From: Gemmatimonadales bacterium
GTDB taxonomy: Bacteria; Gemmatimonadota; Gemmatimonadetes; Gemmatimonadales; GWC2-71-9
Length of the DNA stretch: 64,000 bases
Direction: 5' to 3'
NCBI GenBank assembly: GCA_048499805.1
Contig: JASNZF010000004.1
Span: forward strand, 224,067 to 288,066
Position 1 is the stretch's first letter, and the number at the start of each line of letters is the position of its first letter. Both the position numbers and the translations under genes were made by a program. This document shows, piece after piece, positions 1-57,057 of the stretch. The notes below the pieces were generated by a model, which had not been told where the DNA came from, did no database searches, and was given only the letters and a program-made list of their open reading frames with translations.

Positions 1-332
1 GCTACGGCTGGCGCGCGGGCAGCCCGGAGAGCTCCGGCATCGGCGGCTTCTACGACGTGCTCGGCCCGAACAACTACGTCGTGGAGAGCGGGTCGTACGC
101 CAAGCTCCGCGAGGTGAGCCTGACCTACAAGTTCGGCAAGATCGCGGGTGTCGGCGACTGGACCCTGGGCCTGGTCGGCCGGAACATCCTCAAGTTCACC
201 AACTACTCGGGCATGGATCCGGAGGTGGGTGTCAGTGGTGGCAACACGGGCTCGGGCCTGATCAACCAGACCGACAACTTCGACATGCCGCCGCTGCGGT
301 CGTTCACCTTCTCCATTTCCACGCGCTTCTAG
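1..332 (+). CDS. SusC/RagA-family TonB-dependent outer-membrane receptor, C-terminal fragment (5' end is outside the window). Identical to the C-terminus of the susC at 3624..6983.
   Basis: In-frame with ORF 57..332. The translation matches the last ~110 aa of the 1119-aa SusC and ends ...FTFSISTRF, with the terminal aromatic residue typical of TonB-dependent receptors. It lies inside the 3043-bp perfect repeat. Confidence 0.85.
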   Translation, partial: YGWRAGSPESSGIGGFYDVLGPNNYVVESGSYAKLREVSLTYKFGKIAGVGDWTLGLVGRNILKFTNYSGMDPEVGVSGGNTGSGLINQTDNFDMPPLRSFTFSISTRF

Positions 333-344
333 GAGCCATCCAGA

Positions 345-2030
345 ATGATGCGATCCATGATCCGATGCGGGGCGCTGGCCGGAGCGGTGTTGCTCGGGGC
401 CTGCGACCTCGCGGTCGAGAACCGAACCGCGCCGGACACGTCGAAGGTGCTGGCGACGCCAGCGGACGTCGAGGCGCTCCTGGGCGGGCAGTTCCTCCGC
501 CACAACTCGTCACTGTACGGCAGCACGGCGAACGTGTGGGGCATGATGAACGTCATGTCGCACGAGAACTTCAGCAGCCTGTCGAACAACTGCCAGGGCC
601 AGCGCGTGGGCATCCCGCGCGCCAGCAATGACAACGCAGTCGGCAACGGCTGCGCCAGCGAGCAGCGCCGGGTGTACTACATCGACGGCGAAGTGGTCCG
701 GGTGAGCTCGAACATCCTGGCCAAGCTCAACACCGCGGGCTTCACCCTGGGCTCCACGGCCCAGGACCAGCGGGCGCGGGCCTTCGCCAACTTCACCCGG
801 GGCGTGGCCCTGGGCTACCTGGCGATGGTCTACGACTCGGCGGCGATCATCACCCCCGAGAGCAGCACCGAGGATCCGGGCCAACTCTCCGGCTACCAGG
901 ACGTGATGACCGCGGCGCTGGCCTCGCTGGACGCCGCCATCGCGGCGGCCCAGGCGCCGGGCACCGGGACCGGGGGCTTCCCGATCCCGAACGAGTGGTT
1001 CGCCAACACCAATGGCGCGACCACGGCGGCGGAGTTCATCAAGATCGTCCGCAGCTACAAGGCCCGGTTCCGGGCCGGCGTGGCGCGGACCCCGGCCGAG
1101 CGGGCGGCGGTCAACTGGGCGGCGGTGATCGCCGATGCCCAGAACGGGATCACGCAGGACATGAACCTCCGGACCGCCACCACCGCCGGCACCCTGAGCA
1201 ACAGCTGGGTGTCCACCTGGTACAGCTACACGACCTGGCACCAGATGGTGCCGTTCATCATCGGGATGGGCGACGTCTCGGGCAACTACGAGGCGTACAT
1301 CGCGGCCCCCCTGAACGACAAGGGCAAGGACGGCGCGTTCTTCATGGTGACGCCCGACCTGCGCTGGCCGCAGGGGGCCACCCGCGCCGCCCAGCAGGCC
1401 GACTTCTCGGTCACTTCCTGCACCGCCGCCGGTTCCATCTGCAAGCGGGACTTCCGCAACCGGCCGACGGCGAACGACCAGGCCTCGGGCCCGACCTGGG
1501 GCTACTCGAACTACGACCACACCCGGTACTACGCCTGGGACAAGAGTGGCTCGGAGCCCGGTGCGACCAACAACACCGGCCCGTTCCCGTTCATGAAGAA
1601 GGCCGAGATCGACATGCTCCAGGCCGAGGGCCTGATCCGGACCGGGAGCTTCGCGGCCGCGGCGGCGCTGATCAACAACACCCGCGTCGGGCGCGGTGGC
1701 CTGCCGGCGATCACGGCGTTCGACAACACCTCGCCGGTGCCGGGCGGGGCCAACTGCGTGCCCCGGGTGCCCAATTCATCGGGCACGGCGGTGGCCTGCG
1801 GCAACATGATGGAAGCGATGAAGTGGGAAAAGCGGATGGAAACCGCCTATACGCACTTCGGCGGGTGGTTCTTTGACCACCGCGGGTGGGGTGACCTGCC
1901 CGAGGGGACCCCGACCCACTGGGCCCCGCCGTACGAGGACCTCCTGGCGCGCGGGTATGCCAAGGAGGCCGTCTACAGCCTCGGGGGTGGCCTGCCCGGC
2001 AGCGCCGCCAAGGGGACGTACGGCTGGTGA
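345..2030 (+). CDS. SusD/RagB-family nutrient-binding outer-membrane lipoprotein (copy 1, identical to 6996..8681)
   Basis: 561 aa. Signal peptide with lipobox LLGAC. Sits 12 nt downstream of the susC stop, which is the canonical susC-susD arrangement. Size and composition fit the SusD family. Confidence 0.85.
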   Translation: MMRSMIRCGALAGAVLLGACDLAVENRTAPDTSKVLATPADVEALLGGQFLRHNSSLYGSTANVWGMMNVMSHENFSSLSNNCQGQRVGIPRASNDNAVGNGCASEQRRVYYIDGEVVRVSSNILAKLNTAGFTLGSTAQDQRARAFANFTRGVALGYLAMVYDSAAIITPESSTEDPGQLSGYQDVMTAALASLDAAIAAAQAPGTGTGGFPIPNEWFANTNGATTAAEFIKIVRSYKARFRAGVARTPAERAAVNWAAVIADAQNGITQDMNLRTATTAGTLSNSWVSTWYSYTTWHQMVPFIIGMGDVSGNYEAYIAAPLNDKGKDGAFFMVTPDLRWPQGATRAAQQADFSVTSCTAAGSICKRDFRNRPTANDQASGPTWGYSNYDHTRYYAWDKSGSEPGATNNTGPFPFMKKAEIDMLQAEGLIRTGSFAAAAALINNTRVGRGGLPAITAFDNTSPVPGGANCVPRVPNSSGTAVACGNMMEAMKWEKRMETAYTHFGGWFFDHRGWGDLPEGTPTHWAPPYEDLLARGYAKEAVYSLGGGLPGSAAKGTYGW

Positions 2031-2128
2031 TCACCGCCGACGCCGCCCGCCGGTCGCGACCGGCGGGTCGGCGCCACCCGGCCGGCCGTGCAGACGGTCC
2101 TGGCCCTTCCACTTTCATGGAGTGCGTA

Positions 2129-2977
2129 ATGCGACGCCTTTTTCGACTCTCGGCATTGGCTCTGGCCCTGGGCGCTTCGACCGCCTGCCGGCCCGAGACG
2201 ATCATCGAGACTGAAGACATCCCGACGGCGGGCATCCGGTTCGTCAATGCGGTGCCCGACACCTTCGCGCTGGACTTCCGTCCGGTGGACATCGTGGAGA
2301 ACACCCACTTCTACTCGGTGGGGTTCCGCAGCACGACGCTGCTGTACTACAAGAATGCGCGGGCCGGGCAGCGGCAGTTCAAGATCTTCCTGGCCAACCC
2401 GAGCCTGACGGCGCCGGCGGCGGAACAGCAGGCCATCGCGAGCACGGTGGTGGACGAGCTGAACCTGACGCTGGAAGCGGGGAAGAACTACACGGTCATC
2501 ATCTGGGGCTACATGCGGCCGGGCTCGACGCCGGCGAAGCGGGTGACGGTGCTGGAGGACAATCCGGCGGATCCGGGGAGCCAGGTGGCGCTGCGGATCG
2601 TCAACGCGGCCGCGGACCTGGGCGCGGTGGACGGCCGGTTCTACCCGAGCACGGGCACGGCGCCGGCCTCGCCGAACTGGGCGAACGTGGCGGCCCTGAC
2701 GGCGTCGGCGTACGTGAACACGGCGCCGGGCGCGATCAAGGCGAACGTGCGGCTGGCGGGCGGGACGACGGCGCTGTTCACCGACCCGACGCTGCCGGCC
2801 GGGATTGCGGAGACGATCGACATCGACGGCGCGCCGGGCAGCACGCGGGCGGGGACGGGGATGTCGGGGTTCGTCTTCCCGCGGTCGGTGGCGGGCAGCC
2901 GGGCGACGAACTTCACCACGCCGGGGATGTTCTGGGTGTGGGATCGGCGTCCGCCGCGGACCTGCGCGCTCTGCTAG
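2129..2977 (+). CDS. DUF4397-like surface lipoprotein (copy 1). The annotated ORF starts at 2027, but the probable start is the ATG at 2129.
   Basis: The internal Met gives MRRLFRLSALALALGASTAC, a lipoprotein signal. Repeated [IL]R[FI]VNA.PD...DF/RIVNAAADLGAVD motifs are typical of DUF4397 beta-sandwich repeats. It overlaps the susD stop, consistent with a SusE/F-like accessory position. Confidence 0.5.
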   Translation: MRRLFRLSALALALGASTACRPETIIETEDIPTAGIRFVNAVPDTFALDFRPVDIVENTHFYSVGFRSTTLLYYKNARAGQRQFKIFLANPSLTAPAAEQQAIASTVVDELNLTLEAGKNYTVIIWGYMRPGSTPAKRVTVLEDNPADPGSQVALRIVNAAADLGAVDGRFYPSTGTAPASPNWANVAALTASAYVNTAPGAIKANVRLAGGTTALFTDPTLPAGIAETIDIDGAPGSTRAGTGMSGFVFPRSVAGSRATNFTTPGMFWVWDRRPPRTCALC

Positions 2978-3573
2978 GCGGGTCGGCGATCAGCCGCAGC
3001 ACCAGTCGGGCCGCCGGGCACTCGCCCGGCGGCCCGATTGGCATTCGGGGGCTCCGGAGCGGGCCGCCGACGCCCCCCTTGCTGGTCCTCCGTTCCAGTT
3101 GGCTCGTGGCCAGGCAGCGCGACCGGGGGGCTGGACGAAACCTCGCTGGGGCTGTAGGATCAAGGTTCGGCTGAGACAGAGGGTTCTGCGGGTCGTCGCC
3201 GCGCTGGTGGACGATCGTCGGGATCCGAGTGGGGTGGTATTGCTGGGCCGGTCCACGCGGCCGCCCATGCCGGCCCTGTTGTGTGTGGCAAGCGTCCTTT
3301 TGACACAGCCGTGTACCGGGCCGCGTGTCCGTTCGTCACAACCAGAATCCTTCGCGAGCACAAGTTGTTGCTGTACAGGGACTTGCAACGCCCCCATCCG
3401 GGGCATGCTCCCTGCTGTGTTGCAGGTCACCGTATTGTCTCCGCGCCGGGTGACGGGCGCTGAGGCGGCAGGTTTCGTTTCATTGTGAAGCTCACCTCGA
3501 GCCACACGTTTCCCGCCAATTGGCGAGTTCTCCATAGGTTCCAGCGTCACTACCAGGTTTCGTTCGTCCCGGC

Positions 3574-3591
3574 ATGTCGCCGGGGCGACAT
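3574..3591. promoter_or_regulatory. Perfect 8-bp inverted repeat with a 2-nt spacer (ATGTCGCC-GG-GGCGACAT) in the susC leader, 33 nt upstream of the start codon
   Basis: Read directly from the sequence. Candidate operator or 5'-UTR hairpin for the SusC/SusD operon. Confidence 0.35.
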
Positions 3592-3623
3592 CGTTCACCC
3601 ACGAAAGAGGAACACAGGCGACT

Positions 3624-6600
3624 ATGACGACTTTTGAGCGTCCTCGCGCCATCCTCCGCGTGTTGCTGCCGGTGCTCGCGCTGTTCGGCTTCGCGGCCGA
3701 AGCGCACTCCCAGGCGACGTTCCGCGGCAGGGTGCTGACCGAGCGTGGCGAGCCGATTGCGGCCGCGGCGGTTGGCATTGCCGAGCTCGGCATCACGACC
3801 CAGTCCAACGCCCAGGGGGTCTATACCCTGATTGTCCCGGCGGCACGCGTCTCGGGGCAGCAGGTGACCCTGGCGGCCCGGGCGATCGGATACCGGGCCC
3901 GGTCCACGTCGATCGCGCTGGCGGCCGGCGAGCGGACCATCGACTTCACCCTCATCCAGGACATCAACAAGCTGGAAGAGGTGATCGTCACCGGCGTGAT
4001 GGAGGGCGTGGAGCGCTCCAAGGTGCCGTTCGCCGTGGGCCGTGTCACCGCGGAGGACATCCCGGTGGCGGCGGTGGACCCGGTGCGCGCCCTGCAGGGC
4101 AAGGTGGCCGGTGTCCGGATCGCCCAGACGACGGGCTATCCGGGCTCGACGCCGGAGATCCTGCTGCGCGGCCCGACGTCGATCAACGCGTCGGGGCGTG
4201 GCCAGGGCCCGCTGATCATCATCGACGATGTGATCATGAACGTCGGGGTGCTGACCGAGCTGGGCGGCATGGACATCGAGTCGATCGAGGTGGTGAAGGG
4301 CGCCGCGGGCGCGTCGCTGTACGGGACCCGGGCGGCGAACGGGGTCATCACGATCCGGACCAAGCGCGGGCTGACGGGCGGGAATGACGGGGTCCGGTTC
4401 AACGTGCGGACCGAGTACGGCTTCAACGACATGAACATCGACTACGGCATCCCGGTCAACCACCCGCTCGGTCTCGACGAGACGGGCAAGCGGTTCTGCG
4501 TGATCGTCTCCGGGACCCAGCCGTGCTCGCGCACCCTGGACATCAACCGCGAGATCATGCGCCGCAACGCGGTGGCCGCGGACACGATCCGGACCGGCCA
4601 GAGCGTCCTCTACGCGGCCCCGACCGGGACCGAGCTGCGGAACGTCTACCAGGCCAACATCTGGCCGGGCCAGTACTACAACCAGGTCGCCCAGCTGATG
4701 ACCCGTTCGCCCAGCATCCTGACCAACGTCGACGCGACGGGCCGGGTGGGCAACGTCTCCTTCTACGTCAGCGGCAACTACACCGACGAGGCCGGCGCCC
4801 TCACGGTCCTCAACGGGGTGCAGAACAAGCGGGCCCGCGTCAACCTGGACTACGACGCCCGCTCCGACCTCAAGATCTCGGTGAGCACCTTCGCCGACAA
4901 GCTCAACGACGACAACGACGGGTTCAACTTCGGCGGCCTGCTCCGGGGCATGCTCCCGGGCGTCGACCAGCTGATGCGGGACTCGCTGGGCCGCGCCCCG
5001 CTGGTGACCGGCGGCTCGGGCTACCGGCCGACCGGCAACGGCGGCGGCAACCTGGTGTACGGCCCGGAGAACAACATCGCCTACCGCGAGTCGACCCGGT
5101 TCCTGGGCAGCATCACCGCCCGGTACTTCCCGACCGACTGGGCCACCTTCGAGGCCACGGCCGGCTATGACACCCGGGCCCGCCAGGACGTGGACATCAC
5201 CCCGTCCGGCACGCGGTCGACGTCGATCTCGGCGGCGACGAACAAGGGCAACATGTCGATCAACAACTTCCACGACGAGTCGGTGAACGCGGCGCTGTCG
5301 GCCACGTTCCGGAGCCAGCTCGGCGAGGAGTTGAGCGGCAAGCTGAGCTTCCGCGGCCTGTACGACGAGAACAACTTCAACAGCGTCAACACCGCGGGCC
5401 AGGTGTTCACGGTCAAGGACATCAACACGCTGGGCAACACCACGACCAACAAGTCGAACAGCTCCAGCATCACCACGATCAAGAACGTGGGCCTGTTCGC
5501 CGGCGCGTCGCTGGACTACAAGGACCGCTACATCGTCGAGGGCTCGTTCCGGTACGACGGTTCCTCGCTGTTCGGCGCCGGCAACCGCTGGTCGCCGTTC
5601 GGGCGGATCTCGGCGGTCTGGAACGTGGCGCGCGAGCCGTTCTGGAACGTCGGGTTCATGGATGAGTTCCGGCTCCGCGCCAGCCGCGGCACCGCCGGCA
5701 CCACGCCGCCGTTCTCGGCGCAGTACGAGACCTACTCGGTCAGCGGCACCTCGGTGACGCTGGGCCAGGCGGGCAACCGGCTGATCAAGCCGGAGACCAC
5801 GACCGAGGTGGAGGTCGGCACCGACTTCACGCTGTTCGGGAAGGTCGGCTTCGAGGTGACCTACGCGCACGCCGTGACCCGGGACCAGATCCTGCCGGTC
5901 TCGACGGCGGCGTCGCTGGGCTTCTCGACCCAGTGGCAGAACGCGGGGACGCTGGACAACAAGACGATCGAGCTGGGCGTGAACCTGCCGATCGTCAACA
6001 GCAGCACCCTGTTCTGGCAGATGCGCGGGACCTGGGACCGCACCCGGACCCACATCACCGAGCTGTTCGTCCCCGACTTCATCTACTCGGGCGGCACCGG
6101 CCAGGGCACCGGCAGCTTCTTCTACATGACGGCCAACACCGAAGTGCAGAACGGCTTCCCGCTCAACCGGTACGGCAACATCTACGGCCGCGCCTTCTAC
6201 AAGACCTGCGGCGACCTGCCGGTCTCGGTCCAGCCGGACTGCGGCCCGGGCAAGGCGTACCAGCGGGACAGCAACGGGTGGGTGGTCTGGACCGGGGCGG
6301 GGAACAGCATCGGCGACGGCATCACCAAGAACCTGTGGAGCACCACGCTGCCGGCGAGCGAGTCGCCGTGGAACTACGCCCTGACCTGGGGCCACCCGAT
6401 CGTCGACCGTCCGCTGGCGGGCGAGCCGGGCGAGCGGGTGGGCAAGAACCAGATCATCGGCAACGTGTTCCCGGACTTCCGGTTCACGTTCACGAACGAC
6501 ATCCAGTACAAGAAGCTGACGCTGTACACCCTGCTCGATGCCACCATCGGGCACGAGATCAACAACCAGGGTGAGGGCTGGGGCCTGCTGGACCTGAGCT

Positions 6601-6983
6601 CCGCCTACTTCGACCAGGCCGACCAGACGGTCCAGACGGCCAAGCCGGTGGGCTACGGCTGGCGCGCGGGCAGCCCGGAGAGCTCCGGCATCGGCGGCTT
6701 CTACGACGTGCTCGGCCCGAACAACTACGTCGTGGAGAGCGGGTCGTACGCCAAGCTCCGCGAGGTGAGCCTGACCTACAAGTTCGGCAAGATCGCGGGT
6801 GTCGGCGACTGGACCCTGGGCCTGGTCGGCCGGAACATCCTCAAGTTCACCAACTACTCGGGCATGGATCCGGAGGTGGGTGTCAGTGGTGGCAACACGG
6901 GCTCGGGCCTGATCAACCAGACCGACAACTTCGACATGCCGCCGCTGCGGTCGTTCACCTTCTCCATTTCCACGCGCTTCTAG
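3624..6983 (+). CDS. SusC/RagA-family TonB-dependent outer-membrane receptor (full length, 1119 aa)
   Basis: Signal peptide. N-terminal carboxypeptidase-regulatory-like domain (FRGRVLTERGEPIAAAAVGIAELGITTQSNAQGVYTL). TonB box/plug (EEVIVTGV...IESIEVVKGAAGASLYGTRAANGVITIRTKRG). Long beta-barrel ending in ...STRF. It is followed 12 nt later by susD. Confidence 0.95.
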   Translation: MTTFERPRAILRVLLPVLALFGFAAEAHSQATFRGRVLTERGEPIAAAAVGIAELGITTQSNAQGVYTLIVPAARVSGQQVTLAARAIGYRARSTSIALAAGERTIDFTLIQDINKLEEVIVTGVMEGVERSKVPFAVGRVTAEDIPVAAVDPVRALQGKVAGVRIAQTTGYPGSTPEILLRGPTSINASGRGQGPLIIIDDVIMNVGVLTELGGMDIESIEVVKGAAGASLYGTRAANGVITIRTKRGLTGGNDGVRFNVRTEYGFNDMNIDYGIPVNHPLGLDETGKRFCVIVSGTQPCSRTLDINREIMRRNAVAADTIRTGQSVLYAAPTGTELRNVYQANIWPGQYYNQVAQLMTRSPSILTNVDATGRVGNVSFYVSGNYTDEAGALTVLNGVQNKRARVNLDYDARSDLKISVSTFADKLNDDNDGFNFGGLLRGMLPGVDQLMRDSLGRAPLVTGGSGYRPTGNGGGNLVYGPENNIAYRESTRFLGSITARYFPTDWATFEATAGYDTRARQDVDITPSGTRSTSISAATNKGNMSINNFHDESVNAALSATFRSQLGEELSGKLSFRGLYDENNFNSVNTAGQVFTVKDINTLGNTTTNKSNSSSITTIKNVGLFAGASLDYKDRYIVEGSFRYDGSSLFGAGNRWSPFGRISAVWNVAREPFWNVGFMDEFRLRASRGTAGTTPPFSAQYETYSVSGTSVTLGQAGNRLIKPETTTEVEVGTDFTLFGKVGFEVTYAHAVTRDQILPVSTAASLGFSTQWQNAGTLDNKTIELGVNLPIVNSSTLFWQMRGTWDRTRTHITELFVPDFIYSGGTGQGTGSFFYMTANTEVQNGFPLNRYGNIYGRAFYKTCGDLPVSVQPDCGPGKAYQRDSNGWVVWTGAGNSIGDGITKNLWSTTLPASESPWNYALTWGHPIVDRPLAGEPGERVGKNQIIGNVFPDFRFTFTNDIQYKKLTLYTLLDATIGHEINNQGEGWGLLDLSSAYFDQADQTVQTAKPVGYGWRAGSPESSGIGGFYDVLGPNNYVVESGSYAKLREVSLTYKFGKIAGVGDWTLGLVGRNILKFTNYSGMDPEVGVSGGNTGSGLINQTDNFDMPPLRSFTFSISTRF

Positions 6984-6995
6984 GAGCCATCCAGA

Positions 6996-8681
6996 ATGAT
7001 GCGATCCATGATCCGATGCGGGGCGCTGGCCGGAGCGGTGTTGCTCGGGGCCTGCGACCTCGCGGTCGAGAACCGAACCGCGCCGGACACGTCGAAGGTG
7101 CTGGCGACGCCAGCGGACGTCGAGGCGCTCCTGGGCGGGCAGTTCCTCCGCCACAACTCGTCACTGTACGGCAGCACGGCGAACGTGTGGGGCATGATGA
7201 ACGTCATGTCGCACGAGAACTTCAGCAGCCTGTCGAACAACTGCCAGGGCCAGCGCGTGGGCATCCCGCGCGCCAGCAATGACAACGCAGTCGGCAACGG
7301 CTGCGCCAGCGAGCAGCGCCGGGTGTACTACATCGACGGCGAAGTGGTCCGGGTGAGCTCGAACATCCTGGCCAAGCTCAACACCGCGGGCTTCACCCTG
7401 GGCTCCACGGCCCAGGACCAGCGGGCGCGGGCCTTCGCCAACTTCACCCGGGGCGTGGCCCTGGGCTACCTGGCGATGGTCTACGACTCGGCGGCGATCA
7501 TCACCCCCGAGAGCAGCACCGAGGATCCGGGCCAACTCTCCGGCTACCAGGACGTGATGACCGCGGCGCTGGCCTCGCTGGACGCCGCCATCGCGGCGGC
7601 CCAGGCGCCGGGCACCGGGACCGGGGGCTTCCCGATCCCGAACGAGTGGTTCGCCAACACCAATGGCGCGACCACGGCGGCGGAGTTCATCAAGATCGTC
7701 CGCAGCTACAAGGCCCGGTTCCGGGCCGGCGTGGCGCGGACCCCGGCCGAGCGGGCGGCGGTCAACTGGGCGGCGGTGATCGCCGATGCCCAGAACGGGA
7801 TCACGCAGGACATGAACCTCCGGACCGCCACCACCGCCGGCACCCTGAGCAACAGCTGGGTGTCCACCTGGTACAGCTACACGACCTGGCACCAGATGGT
7901 GCCGTTCATCATCGGGATGGGCGACGTCTCGGGCAACTACGAGGCGTACATCGCGGCCCCCCTGAACGACAAGGGCAAGGACGGCGCGTTCTTCATGGTG
8001 ACGCCCGACCTGCGCTGGCCGCAGGGGGCCACCCGCGCCGCCCAGCAGGCCGACTTCTCGGTCACTTCCTGCACCGCCGCCGGTTCCATCTGCAAGCGGG
8101 ACTTCCGCAACCGGCCGACGGCGAACGACCAGGCCTCGGGCCCGACCTGGGGCTACTCGAACTACGACCACACCCGGTACTACGCCTGGGACAAGAGTGG
8201 CTCGGAGCCCGGTGCGACCAACAACACCGGCCCGTTCCCGTTCATGAAGAAGGCCGAGATCGACATGCTCCAGGCCGAGGGCCTGATCCGGACCGGGAGC
8301 TTCGCGGCCGCGGCGGCGCTGATCAACAACACCCGCGTCGGGCGCGGTGGCCTGCCGGCGATCACGGCGTTCGACAACACCTCGCCGGTGCCGGGCGGGG
8401 CCAACTGCGTGCCCCGGGTGCCCAATTCATCGGGCACGGCGGTGGCCTGCGGCAACATGATGGAAGCGATGAAGTGGGAAAAGCGGATGGAAACCGCCTA
8501 TACGCACTTCGGCGGGTGGTTCTTTGACCACCGCGGGTGGGGTGACCTGCCCGAGGGGACCCCGACCCACTGGGCCCCGCCGTACGAGGACCTCCTGGCG
8601 CGCGGGTATGCCAAGGAGGCCGTCTACAGCCTCGGGGGTGGCCTGCCCGGCAGCGCCGCCAAGGGGACGTACGGCTGGTGA
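6996..8681 (+). CDS. SusD/RagB-family nutrient-binding outer-membrane lipoprotein (copy 2)
   Basis: Identical to 345..2030. Lipobox LLGAC. Immediately downstream of the full-length susC. Confidence 0.9.
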   Translation: MMRSMIRCGALAGAVLLGACDLAVENRTAPDTSKVLATPADVEALLGGQFLRHNSSLYGSTANVWGMMNVMSHENFSSLSNNCQGQRVGIPRASNDNAVGNGCASEQRRVYYIDGEVVRVSSNILAKLNTAGFTLGSTAQDQRARAFANFTRGVALGYLAMVYDSAAIITPESSTEDPGQLSGYQDVMTAALASLDAAIAAAQAPGTGTGGFPIPNEWFANTNGATTAAEFIKIVRSYKARFRAGVARTPAERAAVNWAAVIADAQNGITQDMNLRTATTAGTLSNSWVSTWYSYTTWHQMVPFIIGMGDVSGNYEAYIAAPLNDKGKDGAFFMVTPDLRWPQGATRAAQQADFSVTSCTAAGSICKRDFRNRPTANDQASGPTWGYSNYDHTRYYAWDKSGSEPGATNNTGPFPFMKKAEIDMLQAEGLIRTGSFAAAAALINNTRVGRGGLPAITAFDNTSPVPGGANCVPRVPNSSGTAVACGNMMEAMKWEKRMETAYTHFGGWFFDHRGWGDLPEGTPTHWAPPYEDLLARGYAKEAVYSLGGGLPGSAAKGTYGW

Positions 8682-8779
8682 TCACCGCCGACGCCGCCCG
8701 CCGGTCGCGACCGGCGGGTCGGCGCCACCCGGCCGGCCGTGCAGACGGTCCTGGCCCTTCCACTTTCATGGAGTGCGTA

Positions 8780-9628
8780 ATGCGACGCCTTTTTCGACTC
8801 TCGGCATTGGCTCTGGCCCTGGGCGCTTCGACCGCCTGCCGGCCCGAGACGATCATCGAGACTGAAGACATCCCGACGGCGGGCATCCGGTTCGTCAATG
8901 CGGTGCCCGACACCTTCGCGCTGGACTTCCGTCCGGTGGACATCGTGGAGAACACCCACTTCTACTCGGTGGGGTTCCGCAGCACGACGCTGCTGTACTA
9001 CAAGAATGCGCGGGCCGGGCAGCGGCAGTTCAAGATCTTCCTGGCCAACCCGAGCCTGACGGCGCCGGCGGCGGAACAGCAGGCCATCGCGAGCACGGTG
9101 GTGGACGAGCTGAACCTGACGCTGGAAGCGGGGAAGAACTACACGGTCATCATCTGGGGCTACATGCGGCCGGGCTCGACGCCGGCGAAGCGGGTGACGG
9201 TGCTGGAGGACAATCCGGCGGATCCGGGGAGCCAGGTGGCGCTGCGGATCGTCAACGCGGCCGCGGACCTGGGCGCGGTGGACGGCCGGTTCTACCCGAG
9301 CACGGGCACGGCGCCGGCCTCGCCGAACTGGGCGAACGTGGCGGCCCTGACGGCGTCGGCGTACGTGAACACGGCGCCGGGCGCGATCAAGGCGAACGTG
9401 CGGCTGGCGGGCGGGACGACGGCGCTGTTCACCGACCCGACGCTGCCGGCCGGGATTGCGGAGACGATCGACATCGACGGCGCGCCGGGCAGCACGCGGG
9501 CGGGGACGGGGATGTCGGGGTTCGTCTTCCCGCGGTCGGTGGCGGGCAGCCGGGCGACGAACTTCACCACGCCGGGGATGTTCTGGGTGTGGGATCGGCG
9601 TCCGCCGCGGACCTGCGCGCTCTGCTAG
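8780..9628 (+). CDS. DUF4397-like surface lipoprotein (copy 2)
   Basis: Identical to 2129..2977. Confidence 0.5.
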   Translation: MRRLFRLSALALALGASTACRPETIIETEDIPTAGIRFVNAVPDTFALDFRPVDIVENTHFYSVGFRSTTLLYYKNARAGQRQFKIFLANPSLTAPAAEQQAIASTVVDELNLTLEAGKNYTVIIWGYMRPGSTPAKRVTVLEDNPADPGSQVALRIVNAAADLGAVDGRFYPSTGTAPASPNWANVAALTASAYVNTAPGAIKANVRLAGGTTALFTDPTLPAGIAETIDIDGAPGSTRAGTGMSGFVFPRSVAGSRATNFTTPGMFWVWDRRPPRTCALC

Positions 9629-9789
9629 GCGGGTCGGCGATCAGCCGCAGCACCAGTCGGGCCGCCGGGCACTCGCCCGGCGGCCCGATTGGCGCTCAGG
9701 CCCCTGCAGGCGCAGTGCCGGCCGTCCCGCGCTCCACGCCGCGAGCTGGAACGACCGGACTCCCCACGGCGGCGACAAAGGAGTCGTCC

Positions 9790-10287
9790 ATGTCCCTGCT
9801 TCGCAAACTGGCGAAGTCGGTTCCCCTGGCGCTGGGCATCATCACCCTCGGGGCGCTCCAGGCGACCGCCCAGGACTCGCCCGCGGCTCCGGAGCCCAGC
9901 CGTGACCTGATCGTTCGTGCCGAGCTGGTGAAGGTGGCCGCCCGGTCGCCGGACCTGCTCCGGGCGGTGCGCAGCCTCCGGTCGCACATGGTGGACACGA
10001 CCCGGGGGTCCAGTCGGGGGGTGCGCTCGATGGACGTTGAGGCCCCGGGCAGGACGGCCACCGGGGCCTCGGGCGGGGTGGGGGCCACCCGCAACACCCC
10101 GGCCCCGACCCCGATCCTGTACGTGGACGGGAAGCGCATCGGGCACCTGACCCTGATGCAGGACATCCTGACGGCAGAGGTGGAGGAGGTGAAATACCTC
10201 AACCCGAACCGCGCGGCAGGGGAGCTGGGCCTGGGACACGAGGGTGGGGCCATCATGGTCAAGATGCATCGACCATCCGCACCCTAG
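9790..10287 (+). CDS. Small secreted protein resembling a stand-alone TonB-dependent-receptor plug domain (165 aa from the internal ATG at 9790)
   Basis: Signal peptide MSLLRKLAKSVPLALGIITLGALQATAQ. The segment ...LLRAVRSLRSHMV...PILYVDGKRIGH...AEVEEVKYLNPNRAAGELGLGHEGGAIMVKMHRP has the same order of motifs as the SusC plug in this window (..VRALQGKVAGVRI..PLIIIDDV..IESIEVVKGAAGASLYGTRAANGVITIRTK). A paralog follows at 10443. Confidence 0.45.
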   Translation: MSLLRKLAKSVPLALGIITLGALQATAQDSPAAPEPSRDLIVRAELVKVAARSPDLLRAVRSLRSHMVDTTRGSSRGVRSMDVEAPGRTATGASGGVGATRNTPAPTPILYVDGKRIGHLTLMQDILTAEVEEVKYLNPNRAAGELGLGHEGGAIMVKMHRPSAP

Positions 10288-10442
10288 CCGAGACGACCGC
10301 ACAGGGGGCGTCCCGGTGGGGTCAGCAGGTACCCCGGTGAAACGATTTGTCCAAGCCGGGCGTCCATCCCTTAGTGGGGACGGTCGGGGCGGGAAGGGAC
10401 TCGATGCCGGGATGACCTGAGAACGCCCAGGGAGGGATCCGA

Positions 10443-10865
10443 ATGCAGACCCGATGGTTGTGGACGACGGCGGTACTGGTTGTCACCCTTGGACCGACAC
10501 TGGCGGCCCAGGAGGAGCCGCGGCGACAGGCCCGCGACCGGGACGTGATCAGCCGGGCGGAGCTGGTGGAGTCGGCCCAGAAGAACCAGGACCTGCTCAA
10601 GGCGGTCAAGAGTCTCCGTTCGCACTTTCTTCGGCCCCCTCCCGGGGTCCGGAGCATGACGGGGAATCGGGTCGCCCCGATCCAGCTCTACGTGGATGGC
10701 ATCCGGCAGGCGGAAGTCGAGTCGCTGGTGCTGATCCAGACCATCGACGCAGAGGAAGTCCGCTATCTCGATCCGGGGAAGGCCCAGGATCTCTACGGCA
10801 TCACCCACAACGGCGGCGCGATCCAGGTCAAGCTGTACAAGGGGCCCAAGCCCACCCCGCCGTGA
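10443..10865 (+). CDS. Paralog of 9790..10287: small secreted plug-domain-like protein (140 aa)
   Basis: Signal peptide with AAQ cleavage. Shares RAELVxxAxxxxDLLKAVKSLRSH...IQLYVDGIRQ...AEEVRYLDPGKAQDLYGITHNGGAIQVKLYKGP with the neighbouring ORF at roughly 40% identity. Confidence 0.45.
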   Translation: MQTRWLWTTAVLVVTLGPTLAAQEEPRRQARDRDVISRAELVESAQKNQDLLKAVKSLRSHFLRPPPGVRSMTGNRVAPIQLYVDGIRQAEVESLVLIQTIDAEEVRYLDPGKAQDLYGITHNGGAIQVKLYKGPKPTPP

Positions 10866-10936
10866 CAGGTGGAGGGGACGCAAGCGGGGGTGCACCGACA
10901 TTGCCGTGCCCCCGCCTGAGTTGTTAATTCCGCAGG

Positions 10937-12019
10937 ATGAGCGCCCCCGCGGCCGTGCGGTCCACGCCGGCCATCCTGACCCCCGCCGTCGACCTGCTGT
11001 GCGTGGGCGGACTGTCCCTCCTGGTCCTCGTCCCCCTCCTCGTGAGCGGGATCGACCATCTTGGCTTCATTACGATTGGCGTGCTGGCCTGGGCGCAGGC
11101 GCTGCTGAACTACACCCACTTCATGGCCTCGTACCGGATCGTCTACCGCAGCCGGGAGATGATCCTGCGCCACAAGTGGGCCTCGATCGGCATTCCCGCC
11201 ATCCTGGGCGGCGCCATGGTCGCCGCCCTGCTCGAGGCGCAGGCCGGCGGGAGGATCCTGCTCACGGTGTTCTTCGCCGTGGCGAGCGGCTACCTGGCCT
11301 GGCACTACACCGGCCAGGTGTGGGGAATGATGGCCTCCTATGCCCATCTCGAAGGGGTCCCGTTCGATCGTGGTGAACGGCTGCTGGTCCGGACCGGGCT
11401 GCGGATCCTGCTGGCGTGGCACGTCCTCTGGTTCCTGAAGACCGCGCTGCAGGACCCGGGCCCCGTGGCGGCCCTCTTTCCGGTGGTCAGCGCCGGGGCG
11501 GTCCTGGCACTGGCGCTGGGTGCCGTGGGCCTCTGGAAGCTGCGGATGCGGACGGGCCGGGTGCCCCCTGGACGGGTGCTGGTGCCGTGGCTCGCGATCT
11601 TCGTCTGGTACGCGGCGCTGGCTCGGTGGGGGCTCCCGGCCCTCTTCCTGGTGCAGGCGTTCCATGCGCTCCAGTACCTGGAGTTCCCGGTGCGGGTGGA
11701 GCTCAACCGGGCGATGCGAGATGCGCCCGGACGCACCGTGGGAAGGATGACCGCGTACACCGTGGTGCTGCTCCTGGCCGCCATTGCCGCCATGCTTGTG
11801 GTGCCCGGCCCCGCGATGAGCGTCGTGGCCGACCTCCTTGGCGCCGGCCGGGAGACCCTGGTGCCGGTCCTGGTGATGTACATCATCAACATCCACCACT
11901 ACTTCACCGACGGTGTGGTCTGGAAGATCAGCAACCCGGAGGTGCGGCGCGAGCTCTTTGCGCACCTCGTCCCAGCCCCCCCGGGGCCCGGGGTCGCGAG
12001 GATCCCGAAGCGCCGGTAG
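10937..12019 (+). CDS. Polytopic integral membrane protein of unknown family (360 aa, about 8 TM segments)
   Basis: Long ORF with multiple hydrophobic helices. Conserved-looking HHYFTDGVVWK motif near the C-terminus. No family recognised. Confidence 0.5.
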   Translation: MSAPAAVRSTPAILTPAVDLLCVGGLSLLVLVPLLVSGIDHLGFITIGVLAWAQALLNYTHFMASYRIVYRSREMILRHKWASIGIPAILGGAMVAALLEAQAGGRILLTVFFAVASGYLAWHYTGQVWGMMASYAHLEGVPFDRGERLLVRTGLRILLAWHVLWFLKTALQDPGPVAALFPVVSAGAVLALALGAVGLWKLRMRTGRVPPGRVLVPWLAIFVWYAALARWGLPALFLVQAFHALQYLEFPVRVELNRAMRDAPGRTVGRMTAYTVVLLLAAIAAMLVVPGPAMSVVADLLGAGRETLVPVLVMYIINIHHYFTDGVVWKISNPEVRRELFAHLVPAPPGPGVARIPKRR

Positions 12020-42616: not shown

Positions 42617-42800
42617 GCGGGAACTGTATAGCGCCGTGTGGGGGATGGCTCCCAGCGTGGTAAGCGGGAACTGTACGGTTCCGGGTAGGGGAGCCATCCC
42701 CCCATGGTGAGCGGGAACTGTACGGTTCCGAGTAGGGGAGCCATCCCCCCATGGTGAGCAGGAACAGCGGGACTCCAGGCGGTTCCCGCTCACCATGCTG
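42617..42800. repeat. Three tandem 47-bp units (42617, 42664, 42711) plus a distal inverted arm. Unit 1 carries the core GGGGGATGGCTCCC in inverted orientation relative to units 2 and 3 (GGGAGCCATCCCC). A 17-bp stem pairs 42702..42718 with 42782..42798.
   Basis: Read directly. Units 2 and 3 differ by 1 nt. CCATGGTGAGCGGGAAC pairs with GTTCCCGCTCACCATGC. The array fills the 273-bp gap between convergent dctP and dctM. Confidence 0.8.
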
Positions 42801-53461: not shown

Positions 53462-53515
53462 GGGGTGAGAGGTAAGAGGTAAGAGGTAAGAGGTAAGAAG
53501 GGAGAAGGGAGAAGT
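53430..53515 (+). repeat. Purine-rich heptamer array (GGTRAGA)n overlapping the 3' end of ppk2
   Basis: ggtggggaggtgagaggtgagaggtgaggggtgagaggtaagaggtaagaggtaagaggtaagaagggagaagggagaag. Confidence 0.8.
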
Positions 53516-53666
53516 CTGCCGTAGGCCTGGCGCGGGGGGGGGGCGTGGCGTGGTTCGGCTGGCCTTGCGGGGGGTCGGGCCGGGCGGTAGCCTCCTCGTG
53601 CGATTCGGCCGGCTCCCAGTCGCCGCCCCGCCATCGTTCCGCGCACCTGCCCCAGGGAACTCGCCC

Positions 53667-56600
53667 ATGTCCGCCGATCTCTGCGACGTCATCCGCGGCA
53701 CCCTCGGCGACTCGTACCGGGTCGGCGCGGAACTGACGGGCGGGGGGATGTCCCGGGTCTATACGGCGCAGGACCTGACTCTCGACCGGCGGATCGTCAT
53801 CAAGGTGCTCCCGCCGGAGTTGTGCGGCGTGATGAACGTCGAGCGCTTCAAGCGCGAGATCCGGGTGGCGGCCGGCCTCCAGCATCCCCACATCGTCCCG
53901 GTCCTCAGCACCGGCGAGATGGAGGGCATGCCCTACTACACCATGCCGTTCGTGGAGGGAGAGACGCTCGGGGAGCGGCTCCACCGGACGGGGCCGCTGG
54001 CCCCGCGGGAGGCGATCGGCATCCTCCGCGACGTGGCCCGGGCACTGGCCTACGCCCACGACCGGCAGATCATCCACCGGGACATCAAGCCGGACAACAT
54101 CATGCTGTCCGGGGGCAGTGCGGTGGTCACCGACTTCGGCATCGCGAAGGCGATCAGCCTGTCGCGCGACGTCTCCGGTGGCCACACCCTGACCCAGATC
54201 GGGACGGTGATGGGCACGCCGGCCTACATGGCCCCGGAGCAGGTGGCCGGCGATCCGTCGCTGGATCACCGGGCCGACATCTATGCCTTCGGCTGCCTGG
54301 CCTACGAGGTGCTGACGGGACGGCCCCCGTTCGTCGAGGCGTCGATGCACCAGATGTTCGCGGCGCACCTGTCCGCAGTCCCTGATGAGCTGGAGGCCGT
54401 GGCGCCCGGGGTGCCGGGGTCGTTCGCGGCGCTGGTGATGCAGTGCCTGGCAAAGCAGCCGGCCGAGCGTCCGCCGTCGGCCCATGTCCTCCTGGACCGG
54501 ATCGAGATGCTCACCAGCGGGGGGGAGCTCGCGCTGGCGGCCCCCGCCACGCCCGGGCGGGGAAGGGCCATCCCGGTGGGATCGGGTGCCCCGGTGGCGC
54601 TGCCCCGGATCCTGTCCACCCGGGCCGGACTGTGGGTCGTGCTGCTGCTGGTGGCGCTCGCCAACCTGGTGCAGACCACCCTCGACGAACCACTCGCCAG
54701 GCTGACCGGGGTGCTCGCCCGGCGCGACGCGGTGTCCCGGGCGATGCTGGTGCTCGAGTCGGGGGTGCCATTCGCGGGCCAGGACATGACCAGCACGCTC
54801 GGCGCCTACAGCGCGACCGTGGCGTACTTCTTCCTCTTTCCCGCGCTGCTCGTGGCGATCGGCGTGGCGCTGGCCCGGCGCCCCGCCGTGTCGGCGCTTC
54901 GCACCCTGGTGGTGGCCGTCGCCTGCAACTACGGGATCAGCCTCCTGTTCTTCCTCTTCTTCCCGGTGGCGGAGCGATGGTCGGTTCCCGAGTCGGGCGC
55001 CACCCTGCTCTCGAACCGCTGGAGTGTCCGGCTGATCGAGTGGGTGCGGCCGATGAGCGGGCTGGACAACAGCTTTCCCAGCTTCCACGTCTCGCTGATG
55101 GTGGTCGGGGTCCTGCTCTGCTTCCTGTTCGGGCTGCGGCATCGCTGGGTGGCGGCCTTCGGCGGCCTGGCGGTGATCCTGTCGACCTACCTGCTCGGCA
55201 TCCACTGGATCGCAGACATCCTCGCCGGCCTCGCCGTCGGCGTGATCAGCGTGGCGGTGGCGGCGCGGTTCGAGCGCCGGCTCGCGACGGCGGCCCCCTC
55301 GACGCCGCGGCAGGGTAACCCGGTGCGCTCCCTGGCGATCCTGGCGCTGCTGGTGCTGCCGGGACCCCTGGCCGGGCAGAACTCCCTCACCTTCTCGGCG
55401 GTGGCGCTCGACGCCGAGACCCGGCTGGCCGACGACCGCCTGCGGCGCTACCTGGAGGAGACGGCCGGGGTGGCGCTGGTGGCGGAGGATGCGGCGGAGT
55501 ACAGCCAGGTGATCAACTACCTGGCCACCCGGCGCCCGGGGGATGGCTCGTACCTCGCCCGGGTCACCCCCTACGCACTGGTGGCCGCCGAGCTCCTGGG
55601 CGCCAACGTGCAGGTGCTCGGGACCTATGTCAGCGAGGCCACCACTCGCACGACCTACCAGTCCTACTTCGTGGTGGCGCGCGACCGGTTCCCGCGACCA
55701 CCGGAGCTCCAGGACCTGGTGCGGATGCTGCGCACGGCGCCCGCGGCGATGCGCTTCGGGTACCACAGCGAATTCAGCACCTCGAGCTACTTCCTGCCGG
55801 CGCTGTTCTTCCGGGAGAACGACATCTTCGACATGGCGTCCGGCTCCGAGGAGGCGATCGCCATCCGTGCGCGGCAAGTGCCCGGGGGGAGCAGCGACCT
55901 GGTGCGGGCGGTGGCCGCCGGCGACCTGGACCTCGCGGCGGTGTGGAGCGGCACGGTGGCGGGTTTCCAGCAGACCCCGGAGCTCGCGGCGATCGCCGCC
56001 CGGGTCTACTTCGTTCCCCTTCCGGAGATGCTGCCCAATGACCTGCTGGTGGCGGCCGGCGCGCTGGATTCCACGGTCGGGGCCCGGATCCGGGCCGCGC
56101 TGACGGCGATGCCGGACGGGACGATCCGCACCGGGGACTTCCGGACCTGGAAGCACATCAACGATGCCCCGGAGGCGCGCACCGCGCTGGCGAACCTCCG
56201 GTGGCTGGCGCGCGCCGCCCCGGCTCCCGTGACCGTGGATGTCCAGCGTGCCGGTCCCGATCGGACGGCGATTCCCGACGCCTACCTCCTGGCCGTGCGG
56301 CAGGCGGTCCGCCTGACCGGGATGGAGTTCGTCAACTTCGACCGGGACTACCACCGGCAGCAGGACTATGTGCTGACCCTGGCACCATCGCATGACGGCT
56401 CGGTCATCCTGCGCACCCGGATCGTCGGCGCCGATGCGTTCGACCAGGAGTTCCCGATCAGCTTCCGGGACACCGACGGGCTGATGGCCCGGGTCGCGGA
56501 GGTGCTCCGCTCCCGGGTGCACCGGGTGCGCTACCTGTGGCCGTACCGGACCACCCCGCCGACGATCCTGCGCGACATGCCGCTCGATCTCCGGCCCGGC

Positions 56601-56939
56601 ACCACGGTCTCCGCCCGGATGATCCGGTGGCTCGACACCCGCCGGCATGCCTACACCCAGGGCGCCGAGTTCGAGGCCCAGATCGCCGCCGCCGACCACA
56701 GCAAGGTGGAGCTCTCGCCCAGCTTCGTGGAGGCGGCCGATGCCGATGGCTTCGGCTTCAACCCGATGAGCAACATCTCCTACCGGATCATCCTCCCCCG
56801 GGAAGTGGAGGAGCCGCTCCTCTTCCGGATCCTGACGGTCGCGCTGGTGGGCTGCCTGGCGCTGGCCGCGATCGCGGCAATGGTGGACCTGAGGGGAGAG
56901 GCGAGAAGTGAGAAGCAAGAAGCAAGAGGTAAGAGGTAG
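53667..56939 (+). CDS. Large transmembrane Ser/Thr protein kinase (1090 aa) with a PAP2-like membrane domain, a PhnD/SsuA-like periplasmic binding domain and a C-terminal TM anchor
   Basis: Kinase domain (GGGMSRVYTA, VIKVLPPE, HRDIKPDNIML, DFGIAKA, GTPAYMAPE). Multi-TM block with degenerate PAP2 motifs (RLIEWVRP; FPSFHVSL; STYLLGIHWIADILAG). Periplasmic region with PhnD-like pattern (...VQVLGTYVSEATTRTTYQSYFVVARD...AMRFGYHSEFSTSSYFLPALFF...AAVWSGTVAGF...YFVPLPEMLPNDLLVAAGALD). Terminal TM LLFRILTVALVGCLALAAIAAMV. Confidence 0.8.
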   Translation: MSADLCDVIRGTLGDSYRVGAELTGGGMSRVYTAQDLTLDRRIVIKVLPPELCGVMNVERFKREIRVAAGLQHPHIVPVLSTGEMEGMPYYTMPFVEGETLGERLHRTGPLAPREAIGILRDVARALAYAHDRQIIHRDIKPDNIMLSGGSAVVTDFGIAKAISLSRDVSGGHTLTQIGTVMGTPAYMAPEQVAGDPSLDHRADIYAFGCLAYEVLTGRPPFVEASMHQMFAAHLSAVPDELEAVAPGVPGSFAALVMQCLAKQPAERPPSAHVLLDRIEMLTSGGELALAAPATPGRGRAIPVGSGAPVALPRILSTRAGLWVVLLLVALANLVQTTLDEPLARLTGVLARRDAVSRAMLVLESGVPFAGQDMTSTLGAYSATVAYFFLFPALLVAIGVALARRPAVSALRTLVVAVACNYGISLLFFLFFPVAERWSVPESGATLLSNRWSVRLIEWVRPMSGLDNSFPSFHVSLMVVGVLLCFLFGLRHRWVAAFGGLAVILSTYLLGIHWIADILAGLAVGVISVAVAARFERRLATAAPSTPRQGNPVRSLAILALLVLPGPLAGQNSLTFSAVALDAETRLADDRLRRYLEETAGVALVAEDAAEYSQVINYLATRRPGDGSYLARVTPYALVAAELLGANVQVLGTYVSEATTRTTYQSYFVVARDRFPRPPELQDLVRMLRTAPAAMRFGYHSEFSTSSYFLPALFFRENDIFDMASGSEEAIAIRARQVPGGSSDLVRAVAAGDLDLAAVWSGTVAGFQQTPELAAIAARVYFVPLPEMLPNDLLVAAGALDSTVGARIRAALTAMPDGTIRTGDFRTWKHINDAPEARTALANLRWLARAAPAPVTVDVQRAGPDRTAIPDAYLLAVRQAVRLTGMEFVNFDRDYHRQQDYVLTLAPSHDGSVILRTRIVGADAFDQEFPISFRDTDGLMARVAEVLRSRVHRVRYLWPYRTTPPTILRDMPLDLRPGTTVSARMIRWLDTRRHAYTQGAEFEAQIAAADHSKVELSPSFVEAADADGFGFNPMSNISYRIILPREVEEPLLFRILTVALVGCLALAAIAAMVDLRGEARSEKQEARGKR

Positions 56940-56960
56940 GAGGGGAGGGGAGAGGCAAGA
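56886..56960 (+). repeat. Purine-rich heptamer-like array (GRRGAGA/GGTAAGA)n overlapping the 3' end of the kinase gene
   Basis: gaggggagaggcgagaagtgagaagcaagaagcaagaggtaagaggtaggaggggaggggagaggcaagagg, followed by an AT-rich putative promoter (attgttatgattatatcag). Confidence 0.7.
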
Positions 56961-57057
56961 GGATGTTGTGGCAGGAGCCCAATTCGGATATTGTTATGAT
57001 TATATCAGATCTGGCGGCGCAGGCGAGGGCCGCCCCAACGAGAGGCAGGCCGGTTCC

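Follow-up and report, generated by a model that had tools for sequence, protein, structure and literature searches.

The window analysed here is a 64,000-nt stretch from an uncultured Gemmatimonadales bacterium (GenBank assembly GCA_048499805.1, contig JASNZF010000004.1, positions 224,067 to 288,066 of the forward strand; G+C 69%). It opens with a tandem array of two units, each carrying susC, a SusD-like lipoprotein gene and a DUF4397 lipoprotein gene. The visible parts of the two units are exact copies: positions 1..3042 equal 6652..9693 with zero mismatches over 3042 bp, at a repeat period of 6651 bp, and the copies first differ at 3043 (A) versus 9694 (G). The length of the repeat makes a chance origin irrelevant. 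In a BLAST comparison of the two array halves, the palindromic hairpins that close the units were the sole further shared segment, and no inverted arrangement of repeats was found at the array. On the left the repeat runs to window position 1, which pairs with 6652. Its apparent start inside susC is the cut of the window rather than a biological boundary, so that the true repeat could extend to as much as 6651 bp. The duplicated unit is the whole 6651-bp operon, comprising spacer, leader, susC, the susD-like gene, the DUF4397 lipoprotein gene and the terminator hairpin. The features of the array are listed below with the evidence for each in brackets; L-numbers denote related loci or contigs, from public genomes and metagenomes, that were compared with the window.

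1..332, + strand: truncated susC of unit 1, of which the window contains the 3' end (same sequence as 6652..6983)
345..2030, + strand: SusD-like lipoprotein gene of unit 1, 561 aa (identical to 6996..8681)
2031..2128, + strand: 98-nt remnant in unit 1 where relatives have a small lipoprotein gene of 147-159 aa
2129..2977, + strand: DUF4397 lipoprotein gene of unit 1, 282 aa (ATG used by homologues)
3002..3041, + strand: terminator-like hairpin with an 18-bp stem at the end of unit 1 (folding energy, compensatory changes)
3043..3290, + strand: inter-unit spacer, starting at the junction 3042/3043 (weak, above-shuffle similarity to the spacer of L042 and to DNA upstream of susC in L010 and L025; L037 junction)
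3291..3623, + strand: leader/promoter region of susC (block 3291..3435 conserved in relatives)
3624..6983, + strand: susC of unit 2, 1119 aa, SusC/RagA TonB-dependent transporter (NCBIfam and Pfam matches)
6996..8681, + strand: SusD-like lipoprotein gene of unit 2, 561 aa, with signal peptide and lipobox LLGAC (AlphaFold2 fold, signal peptide)
8682..8779, + strand: 98-nt remnant in unit 2 (same deletion in both units)
8780..9628, + strand: DUF4397 lipoprotein gene of unit 2, 282 aa (ATG used by homologues)
9653..9692, + strand: second copy of the hairpin, closing unit 2; 9693 is the last base of the repeat, and unique downstream DNA follows from 9694 (sequence comparison)
9790..10287 and 10443..10865, + strand: two genes for small secreted plug-like proteins directly downstream of the array, outside the repeat (open reading frames, Pfam)

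The transporter encoded by unit 2 susC passes both NCBIfam cut-offs (TIGR04056, 406.6 bits against 368.25; TIGR04057 signature, 47.5 against 46.2) and contains, by Pfam, a carboxypeptidase-regulatory-like domain (PF13715, residues 34-122), a plug (PF07715, 132-241) and a barrel (PF00593, 469-812). The start codon of the SusD-like gene lies 13 nt past the susC stop, and the N-terminus of its product is MMRSMIRCGALAGAVLLGAC, which includes the lipobox cysteine. An earlier note on this DNA had reported a perfect 3,043-bp repeat whose copies encode identical SusD (561 aa) and DUF4397 (316 aa) proteins, copy A being followed by the susC leader and copy B by the plug-like small genes. The gene content agrees with that order, the identity is perfect and the products are the same in both copies; the repeat, however, is one base shorter, and 316 aa is merely the longest frame, a GTG open reading frame. 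Comparison with homologues places the start of the DUF4397 gene (Pfam match, E 3.8e-18) at ATG 8780 (2129 in unit 1), giving a 282-aa lipoprotein with the N-terminus MRRLFRLSALALALGASTAC. That note also stated that the two receptors differ in no part of SusC other than the N-terminal four-fifths. This is unsupported: the idea stems solely from where the window was cut, and the upstream susC lies outside it.

The name SusD, also used in that note, fails by sequence and holds by fold. Pfam PF07980 (SusD_RagB) matches the protein at 17.1 bits (E 0.0045), below the cut-off of 23.1; an NCBIfam search returned no match; only three of seven relatives of the protein have a Pfam SusD match at E <=1; and a profile search of PDB sequences returned only 3qnk_A (E 0.003). 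The AlphaFold2 model, built on an alignment of 48 homologues, has a predicted local distance difference test score (pLDDT) of 85.1 and a predicted template modelling score (pTM) of 0.88. When it was compared with the PDB by Foldseek, all 50 of the 50 matches listed were SusD/RagB-family proteins or SusCD-type complexes containing them, and among these matches the best had E 5.8e-10 and probability 1.00, with TM-scores of 0.4-0.6. On the modelled fold, the protein is a member of the SusD/RagB family. It has about 2900 homologues, mostly in Gemmatimonadota and for the most part annotated as hypothetical: a large clade of SusD-fold lipoproteins sits under the Pfam and NCBIfam thresholds, and divergent SusD partners of this kind escape the sequence models tried. 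The locus is predicted to encode a SusCD-type importer with a DUF4397 surface lipoprotein.

All relatives of the array come from Gemmatimonadales or Gemmatimonadota metagenome-assembled genomes (MAGs) or from metagenome contigs, and the closest matches in scans of genome and metagenome contigs reach 94% amino-acid identity (partial) and 92% for full-length SusC. A SusC protein search likewise peaked at 92%, and look-ups of the exact SusC and SusD-like sequences returned no entry. At 57-92% SusC identity, relatives carry a single unit (L003, L004, L010/L021-24, L025-26 and L027-36), in the order susC, susD, a small lipoprotein gene of 147-159 aa, DUF4397 and one to three small plug-like genes. 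Where DNA upstream of a single unit is present (L027, L025, L017 and L054), it holds a DUF5118/DUF5117/DUF4953 met-zincin gene. Judging from these relatives, the ancestral state is a single copy.

The join between the two units recurs in independent contigs. A search with the SusD-like protein yielded a cluster 98% identical to it (P0121 and its members), whose contigs were compared with the window. One of them, L037 (short-read run DRR859399, from another sample), aligns with window 4731..8704 and then, after the small lipoprotein gene, with 2046..3677 unbroken at 96.5% identity. Its path leads from DUF4397 through the hairpin and across 3042/3043 into the leader and the start of susC, and the junction, GATTGGC followed by ATTCGGGGGCTCC, is identical in L037 and the window. 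L044 ends precisely at the equivalent of 9693/3042, and in L052 and L056 the DUF4397 gene runs on into the downstream genes. Two tandem units are present in L042 (European Nucleotide Archive ERZ25039603, contig_29369; 103.5 kb, ~89% identical), which was found via cluster member P0253: its positions 1..4711 correspond to window 4977..9700, 4946..10385 to 3288..8704 and 10824..11805 to 8727..9703, after which the downstream genes follow. At its junction L042 reads ...GGTTGGC followed by GTTCGGGG..., and the window reads ...GATTGGC followed by ATTCGGGGG...; seven of the first eight spacer bases are the same, the 234-nt L042 spacer shares the motif GGGGGG(C)TGGACGAAA with window spacer 3043..3290 at a similar offset, and the local alignment score of the two spacers is 29, against 19.1 +/- 2.4 for shuffles. 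On this alignment we assign, with moderate confidence, the L042 junction as homologous to that of the window.

That three assemblies of separate samples share the join makes a wholesale misassembly very unlikely, and likewise a duplication private to the window genome. Under the first of these explanations there would be one unit, its DUF4397-to-leader join having been created by chimeric reads or a circular by-product. The repeat does touch the window edge; against this, the window, L037 and L042 represent three samples and, judging by contig names, at least two assembly methods, and L044 stops exactly at the branch point. We consider this explanation barely credible. The earlier note had described two tandem susC-susD-lipoprotein units and had offered a very recent segmental duplication, ongoing gene conversion or an assembly artefact as their explanation. 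The two units are borne out by the DUF4397-to-leader junction in L037 and by the tandem pair in L042, and for the tandem arrangement an artefact is effectively excluded by the junction in short-read L037, the end of L044 at the boundary and the two units of L042. A very recent, independent tandem duplication or amplification in the window genome, with no gene conversion, would suit the perfect identity, the period of one complete transcription unit and the single copies of the more distant relatives. It is, however, at odds with the same junction and spacer in L037 at 96.5% identity, with the homologous junction in L042 and with the units of L042, which have had time to diverge by ~5%. As the junction is shared with L037 and L042, the join is far older than the zero divergence of the copies implies; we regard a recent event as improbable, and the segmental duplication proposed earlier is not favoured, the junction being common to lineages 2-11% apart in DNA.

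The structure of the repeat ends bears on how the units were joined. The right end of the repeat (3042/9693) lies one base beyond the hairpin, and the 86-nt stretch holding the hairpin (2975..3060) has a folding energy of -57.6 kcal/mol (z -5.3). The hairpin is kept after DUF4397 in eight loci, with compensatory changes in 10 of its 18 pairs. It lacks a T-tract, and the compensatory and G-U changes fit a + strand RNA structure; in all probability it terminates the operon or stabilises the transcript. Within the window it occurs only at the two unit ends. An origin by recombination between dispersed repeats was considered and rejected, given that the hairpin is confined to the unit ends and no insertion sequence or recombinase turned up; annotation of the neighbours and a repeat search found neither an insertion sequence nor a recombinase gene near the array, and neither an insertion sequence nor a long repeat adjoins the join. 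In L042 the two continuations past the hairpin share four more bases (GTTC), which may be the trace of a short microhomology where the illegitimate join first formed, beside a strong hairpin.

On the other side of the join, spacer 3043..3290 weakly resembles the intergenic sequence that precedes susC in L010 (score 36; shuffles 21.8 +/- 2.8) and L025 (39; 21.5 +/- 3.0), and this weak but above-shuffle match suggests that the spacer derives from the ancestral intergenic region upstream of susC. Homology of the leader with L010, L008 and L025 begins at window 3291. The duplicated segment would thus begin in the old intergenic region and end just past the terminator; it corresponds to one complete transcription unit. 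Within the leader, block 3291-3435, which lies ~190-330 nt upstream of the susC start, is 73% identical to L010 over 146 nt, and the surrounding leader is not conserved; in L025 only the first 48 nt of the block are shared with the window (75%), and the match between L025 and L010 extends over 133 nt. The block may be a regulatory site or a 5' untranslated region element. An Rfam search of the 580-nt spacer plus leader returned no family, and a sigma-70 promoter scan of the leader found nothing.

Units within a genome are more alike than units of different genomes. In the 3' part of susC, L042 unit 1 and unit 2 are 97.1% identical, and the L042 units are 92.3-92.6% identical to the window; the corresponding values are 91.8% and 89.1-89.5% for susD, and 95.2% and 87.9-89.6% for DUF4397. 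The window units, at 100% identity over the visible 3042 bp, compare with a between-genome identity of 87.9-92.6%. Both the window and L042 show paralogues closer than orthologues, as in concerted evolution. Identity between the two L042 units is a mosaic, ranging from 84 to 100% in 200-nt windows. With L010 as outgroup, 112 quartet sites put the two L042 units together, 49 the window and L042 unit 1, and 22 the window and L042 unit 2. The patch 8050..8300 is split 14:2:2 in favour of the window with L042 unit 1: here L042 unit 2 keeps the L010-like allele, and L042 unit 1, the window and L043 share a derived allele.

Taken together, paralogues closer than orthologues, a shared junction and an unconverted patch argue for an old duplication whose copies have been exchanging sequence. 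We give a probability of about 65% to an old tandem duplication of single origin, the copies of which were homogenised by recombination. Among the explanations that the earlier note had listed, ongoing gene conversion comes closest: on the present alignments, gene conversion or unequal crossing-over is the best supported option, the L042 units being closer to each other than to the window and mosaic in their identity. The duplication would have arisen once in an ancestor, when the base just past the terminator hairpin was joined to an intergenic point upstream of susC, and the join would have been inherited by lineages that now differ by up to ~11% in DNA. Homologous recombination between the direct repeats would keep overwriting one copy, by gene conversion or by cycles of unequal crossing-over. 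In the window genome the homogenised tract would cover at least the last 3042 bp of the unit, including the small-gene deletion, and would stop at 3042/9693 because homology stops there. We infer that the exchange has gone furthest in the window, to 100% identity.

The small lipoprotein gene provides a second view of the exchange. It lies between susD and DUF4397 in every single-copy relative (5625-6068 in L021), and its product has the lipobox LGGC and no Pfam match. Populations ~98% identical to the window include both a gene-bearing form (L043, L044, L052 and L056) and a deleted form with the exact end points of the window (L045 and L047). In the window, both units are of the deleted form, which fits a spread of the deletion by homogenisation. 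In L042, the gene is deleted from unit 1 (3706-3724) and present in unit 2 (10363-10818). The deletion was considered as a derived marker of unit 1 shared by L042 and the window, and was rejected, the alignment showing end points that differ on both sides. On that alignment, the loss in L042 unit 1 is a parallel loss, one unit having lost the gene independently in two lineages.

Contig breaks in the ~98% populations bear on the part of unit 1 susC that lies beyond the window edge. Contigs from eleven runs begin exactly at the equivalent of 4731 (L037-39, L044, L047-49, L052-53 and L057-58), and many end at the equivalents of 8684 or 8763. The starts of L043 and L045 (3648) and the end of L037 (3677) overlap by 30 nt, which fits a k-mer graph node with k = 31. 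Just upstream of the 4731-equivalent there are two alleles, of which the L043-type reads CTCAGCCGGACCCCGACGATCATGACCAACGTGG. Divergence between L043 and the window is ~5% in 3700-4800 and ~0.7% in 4800-7800; the N-terminal third of the gene is 95.3% identical and the 3' part 99.3%, and SusC residues 9-369 differ by 16 amino acids, mostly conservatively. The simplest reading of these breaks is that the two susC copies of the ~98% genomes differ upstream of 4731 and are homogenised downstream, and a strain mixture could yield the same breaks. For the genome from which the window comes, the breaks and the mismatch density in the ~98% populations hint that any difference between the susC copies amounts to at most ~5% in DNA and lies upstream of the 4731-equivalent (codons 1-369, the N-terminal third). 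Indirectly, if the same holds in this genome, the repeat would be ~4963 bp long.

Possibly, the arrangement is a maintained two-receptor design, in which the 5' third of susC is kept distinct (~5% in DNA, 16 amino-acid differences), the stretch from 4731 to the terminator is homogenised, and one unit tends to lose the small gene; we hold this to be doubtful. If true, one SusD and lipoprotein sequence would be shared by two SusC variants, which would differ from the N-terminal extension through the plug to the first strands of the barrel, and the homogenised stretch would encode most of the barrel, SusD and the DUF4397 lipoprotein. In practical terms, the array breaks short-read assemblies at fixed points (the same start base in at least 11 runs), and such loci are likely under-represented or collapsed in MAGs.

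Several observations weigh against an old duplication homogenised by recombination. Homology between the window and L042 spacers is weak (z ~4). The L042 mosaic could also stem from recombination between lineages, and the gene calls of L042 are frameshifted, as in a noisy long-read assembly. Consensus errors would not account for as many substitutions as the ~5% between its units. The deletions in L042 unit 1 and in the window, with their different end points, provide no shared derived character. The visible part of unit 1 starts at the window edge, beyond which the identical tract may or may not continue. L052 and L056 link the gene-bearing form to the downstream flank, and unit 2 of the window, which is without the gene on that flank, reflects either true conversion or error. 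Finally, a reused graph edge or polishing with multi-mapped reads would make the copies identical by construction.

The last two points lead to an explanation in which the tandem arrangement is real and the perfect identity comes from assembly or polishing, the true copies being slightly different and unit 2 perhaps retaining the small gene. Any of three causes could have this effect: the assembler may have passed one graph edge two times, it may have prolonged a contig end into a collapsed repeat, or multi-mapped reads may have gone into the consensus. It would accommodate the zero differences over 3042 bp, compared with ~5% between the L042 units, and the start of the window inside unit 1, as in the L042 contig, since assemblers stop in this way at unresolved repeats. 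It is also consistent with the co-occurrence in close relatives of the small-gene form on the downstream flank (L052 and L056) and the deleted form (L045 and L047), and with the breaks of public contigs of the window lineage at the equivalents of 3648/3677, 4731, 8684, 8763 and 9693. However, a contig of at least 64 kb that passes through a repeat of at least 3 kb is unlikely to arise from short reads alone, and long reads probably span the repeat; the contig was probably built with long reads, which favours a real structure. Polishing does not remove a 400-bp indel, and in at least six short-read runs of relatives the equivalent of 4731..8684 is a single 3954-bp contig, which indicates that the units are near-identical there. 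On balance we think an artefactual identity unlikely.

As a mechanism, homogenisation of an old tandem pair is nothing unusual; it is the setting that is new. Bacterial duplicates are known to evolve in concert by gene conversion, tufA/tufB and the rRNA operons being examples. As in those cases, the paralogues within a genome are closer than orthologues and identity tracts are mosaic; what sets the window apart from those examples is that its repeats lie side by side in direct orientation and take in an entire operon of three genes, leader included. Between adjacent direct repeats, unequal crossing-over is as likely as conversion. Tandem duplications in bacteria are frequent and unstable, and the duplication-amplification model of Salmonella and E. 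coli shares with the window the head-to-tail, identical, complete transcription units and the non-coding join. It differs in that a transient amplification has a junction private to one genome, whereas the window junction, common to L037 and L042, has been inherited across lineages 2-11% apart and thus stably kept. In the SusC/SusD shufflons of Bacteroides fragilis, too, several susC genes share blocks that allow recombination; those systems use inverted repeats and a site-specific invertase, whereas the window repeats are direct and no recombinase was found among the annotated neighbours. Literature searches returned no report of concerted evolution specific to susCD or polysaccharide utilisation locus (PUL) genes.

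The operon shares with the SusC/SusD (RagA/RagB) PULs of Bacteroidota a SusC/RagA transporter gene followed after 13 nt by the gene for a SusD-fold lipoprotein, but its SusD-like clade is divergent and is missed at the cut-offs of both Pfam and NCBIfam. Loci with susCD pairs in tandem are frequent in Bacteroides, where the pairs are diverged paralogues with different specificities; those of the window are identical copies. Among the neighbours tested with Pfam, which are part of the window's open reading frames and were searched with no CAZy-specific library, no carbohydrate-active enzyme or glycoside hydrolase was found; those tested were DUF4397, plug-like small proteins, PAP2/VCPO-like and FG-GAP/UnbV_ASPIC proteins and, upstream in relatives, the DUF4953 met-zincin. 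Since none of them is a carbohydrate-active enzyme, the substrate may not be a polysaccharide; it is a speculation that peptides rather than glycans are imported. A susCD tandem has already been reported in Gemmatimonadetes by PULDB (PMC5753385), and of the features by which PULs are recognised there, the window shows the susC-susD tandem, and no adjoining carbohydrate-active enzyme was found among the neighbours tested. What the array adds is that SusCD-type operons of Gemmatimonadota can be tandem duplicates evolving in concert. The duplication may raise transporter dosage or provide two slightly different receptors, neither of which overturns current understanding.

Some further loci were considered as evidence on the duplication. 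Five Joint Genome Institute contigs of the 92% relative (L010 and L021-L024) end ~450-640 bp upstream of susC. L010 breaks off (1-140) within a tandem repeat of 21 nt, whose translation, PVGDPTP repeats, would close an upstream open reading frame. These ends were rejected as a sign of duplication because the contigs end in that repeat and hold no information on copy number; the recurrent break is an assembly break unrelated to the duplication. L017/L054 was considered as unit 1 of the window lineage, as its met-zincin gene is followed by a susC N-terminus 91% identical to that of the window. It was rejected: it stays ~92% identical past the 4731-equivalent, is about equidistant from the window, L043 and L042, and probably represents another lineage. 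The last 35 nt of L054 (6245-6279) are Illumina adapter (TruSeq read-through) and create a false stop in its susC call, and positions 1-70 of L008 are Nextera/P5 Illumina adapter. The Gemmatimonadales genome Fractures_MAG_09 holds two susC paralogues (L001 and L002), 88.6% identical over 3.2 kb and both cut at contig ends, one followed by susD and the other by an 866-aa open reading frame on the opposite strand; possibly susC is duplicated in this member of the order as well, or else the bin mixes genomes.

Elsewhere in the window, the two plug-like genes downstream of the array encode paralogous products of 165 and 140 aa, one of which matches the Plug domain weakly (E 0.0031). Such genes number one to three in relatives, and copy number evidently changes fast there. 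The open reading frame 53550..56939, considered as a second SusC, was rejected: its product, 1129 aa and of SusC-like size, is a kinase-PAP2 fusion with Ser/Thr protein kinase, PAP2 phosphatase and phosphonate-binding periplasmic domains. At three gene boundaries (20031-20096, 53441-53498 and ~56891-56968) there are arrays of 8-9 purine-rich heptamers, (GGTAAGA)n and (GAGGTAA)n, and a 47-nt unit is repeated 3.2 times at 42617-42765.

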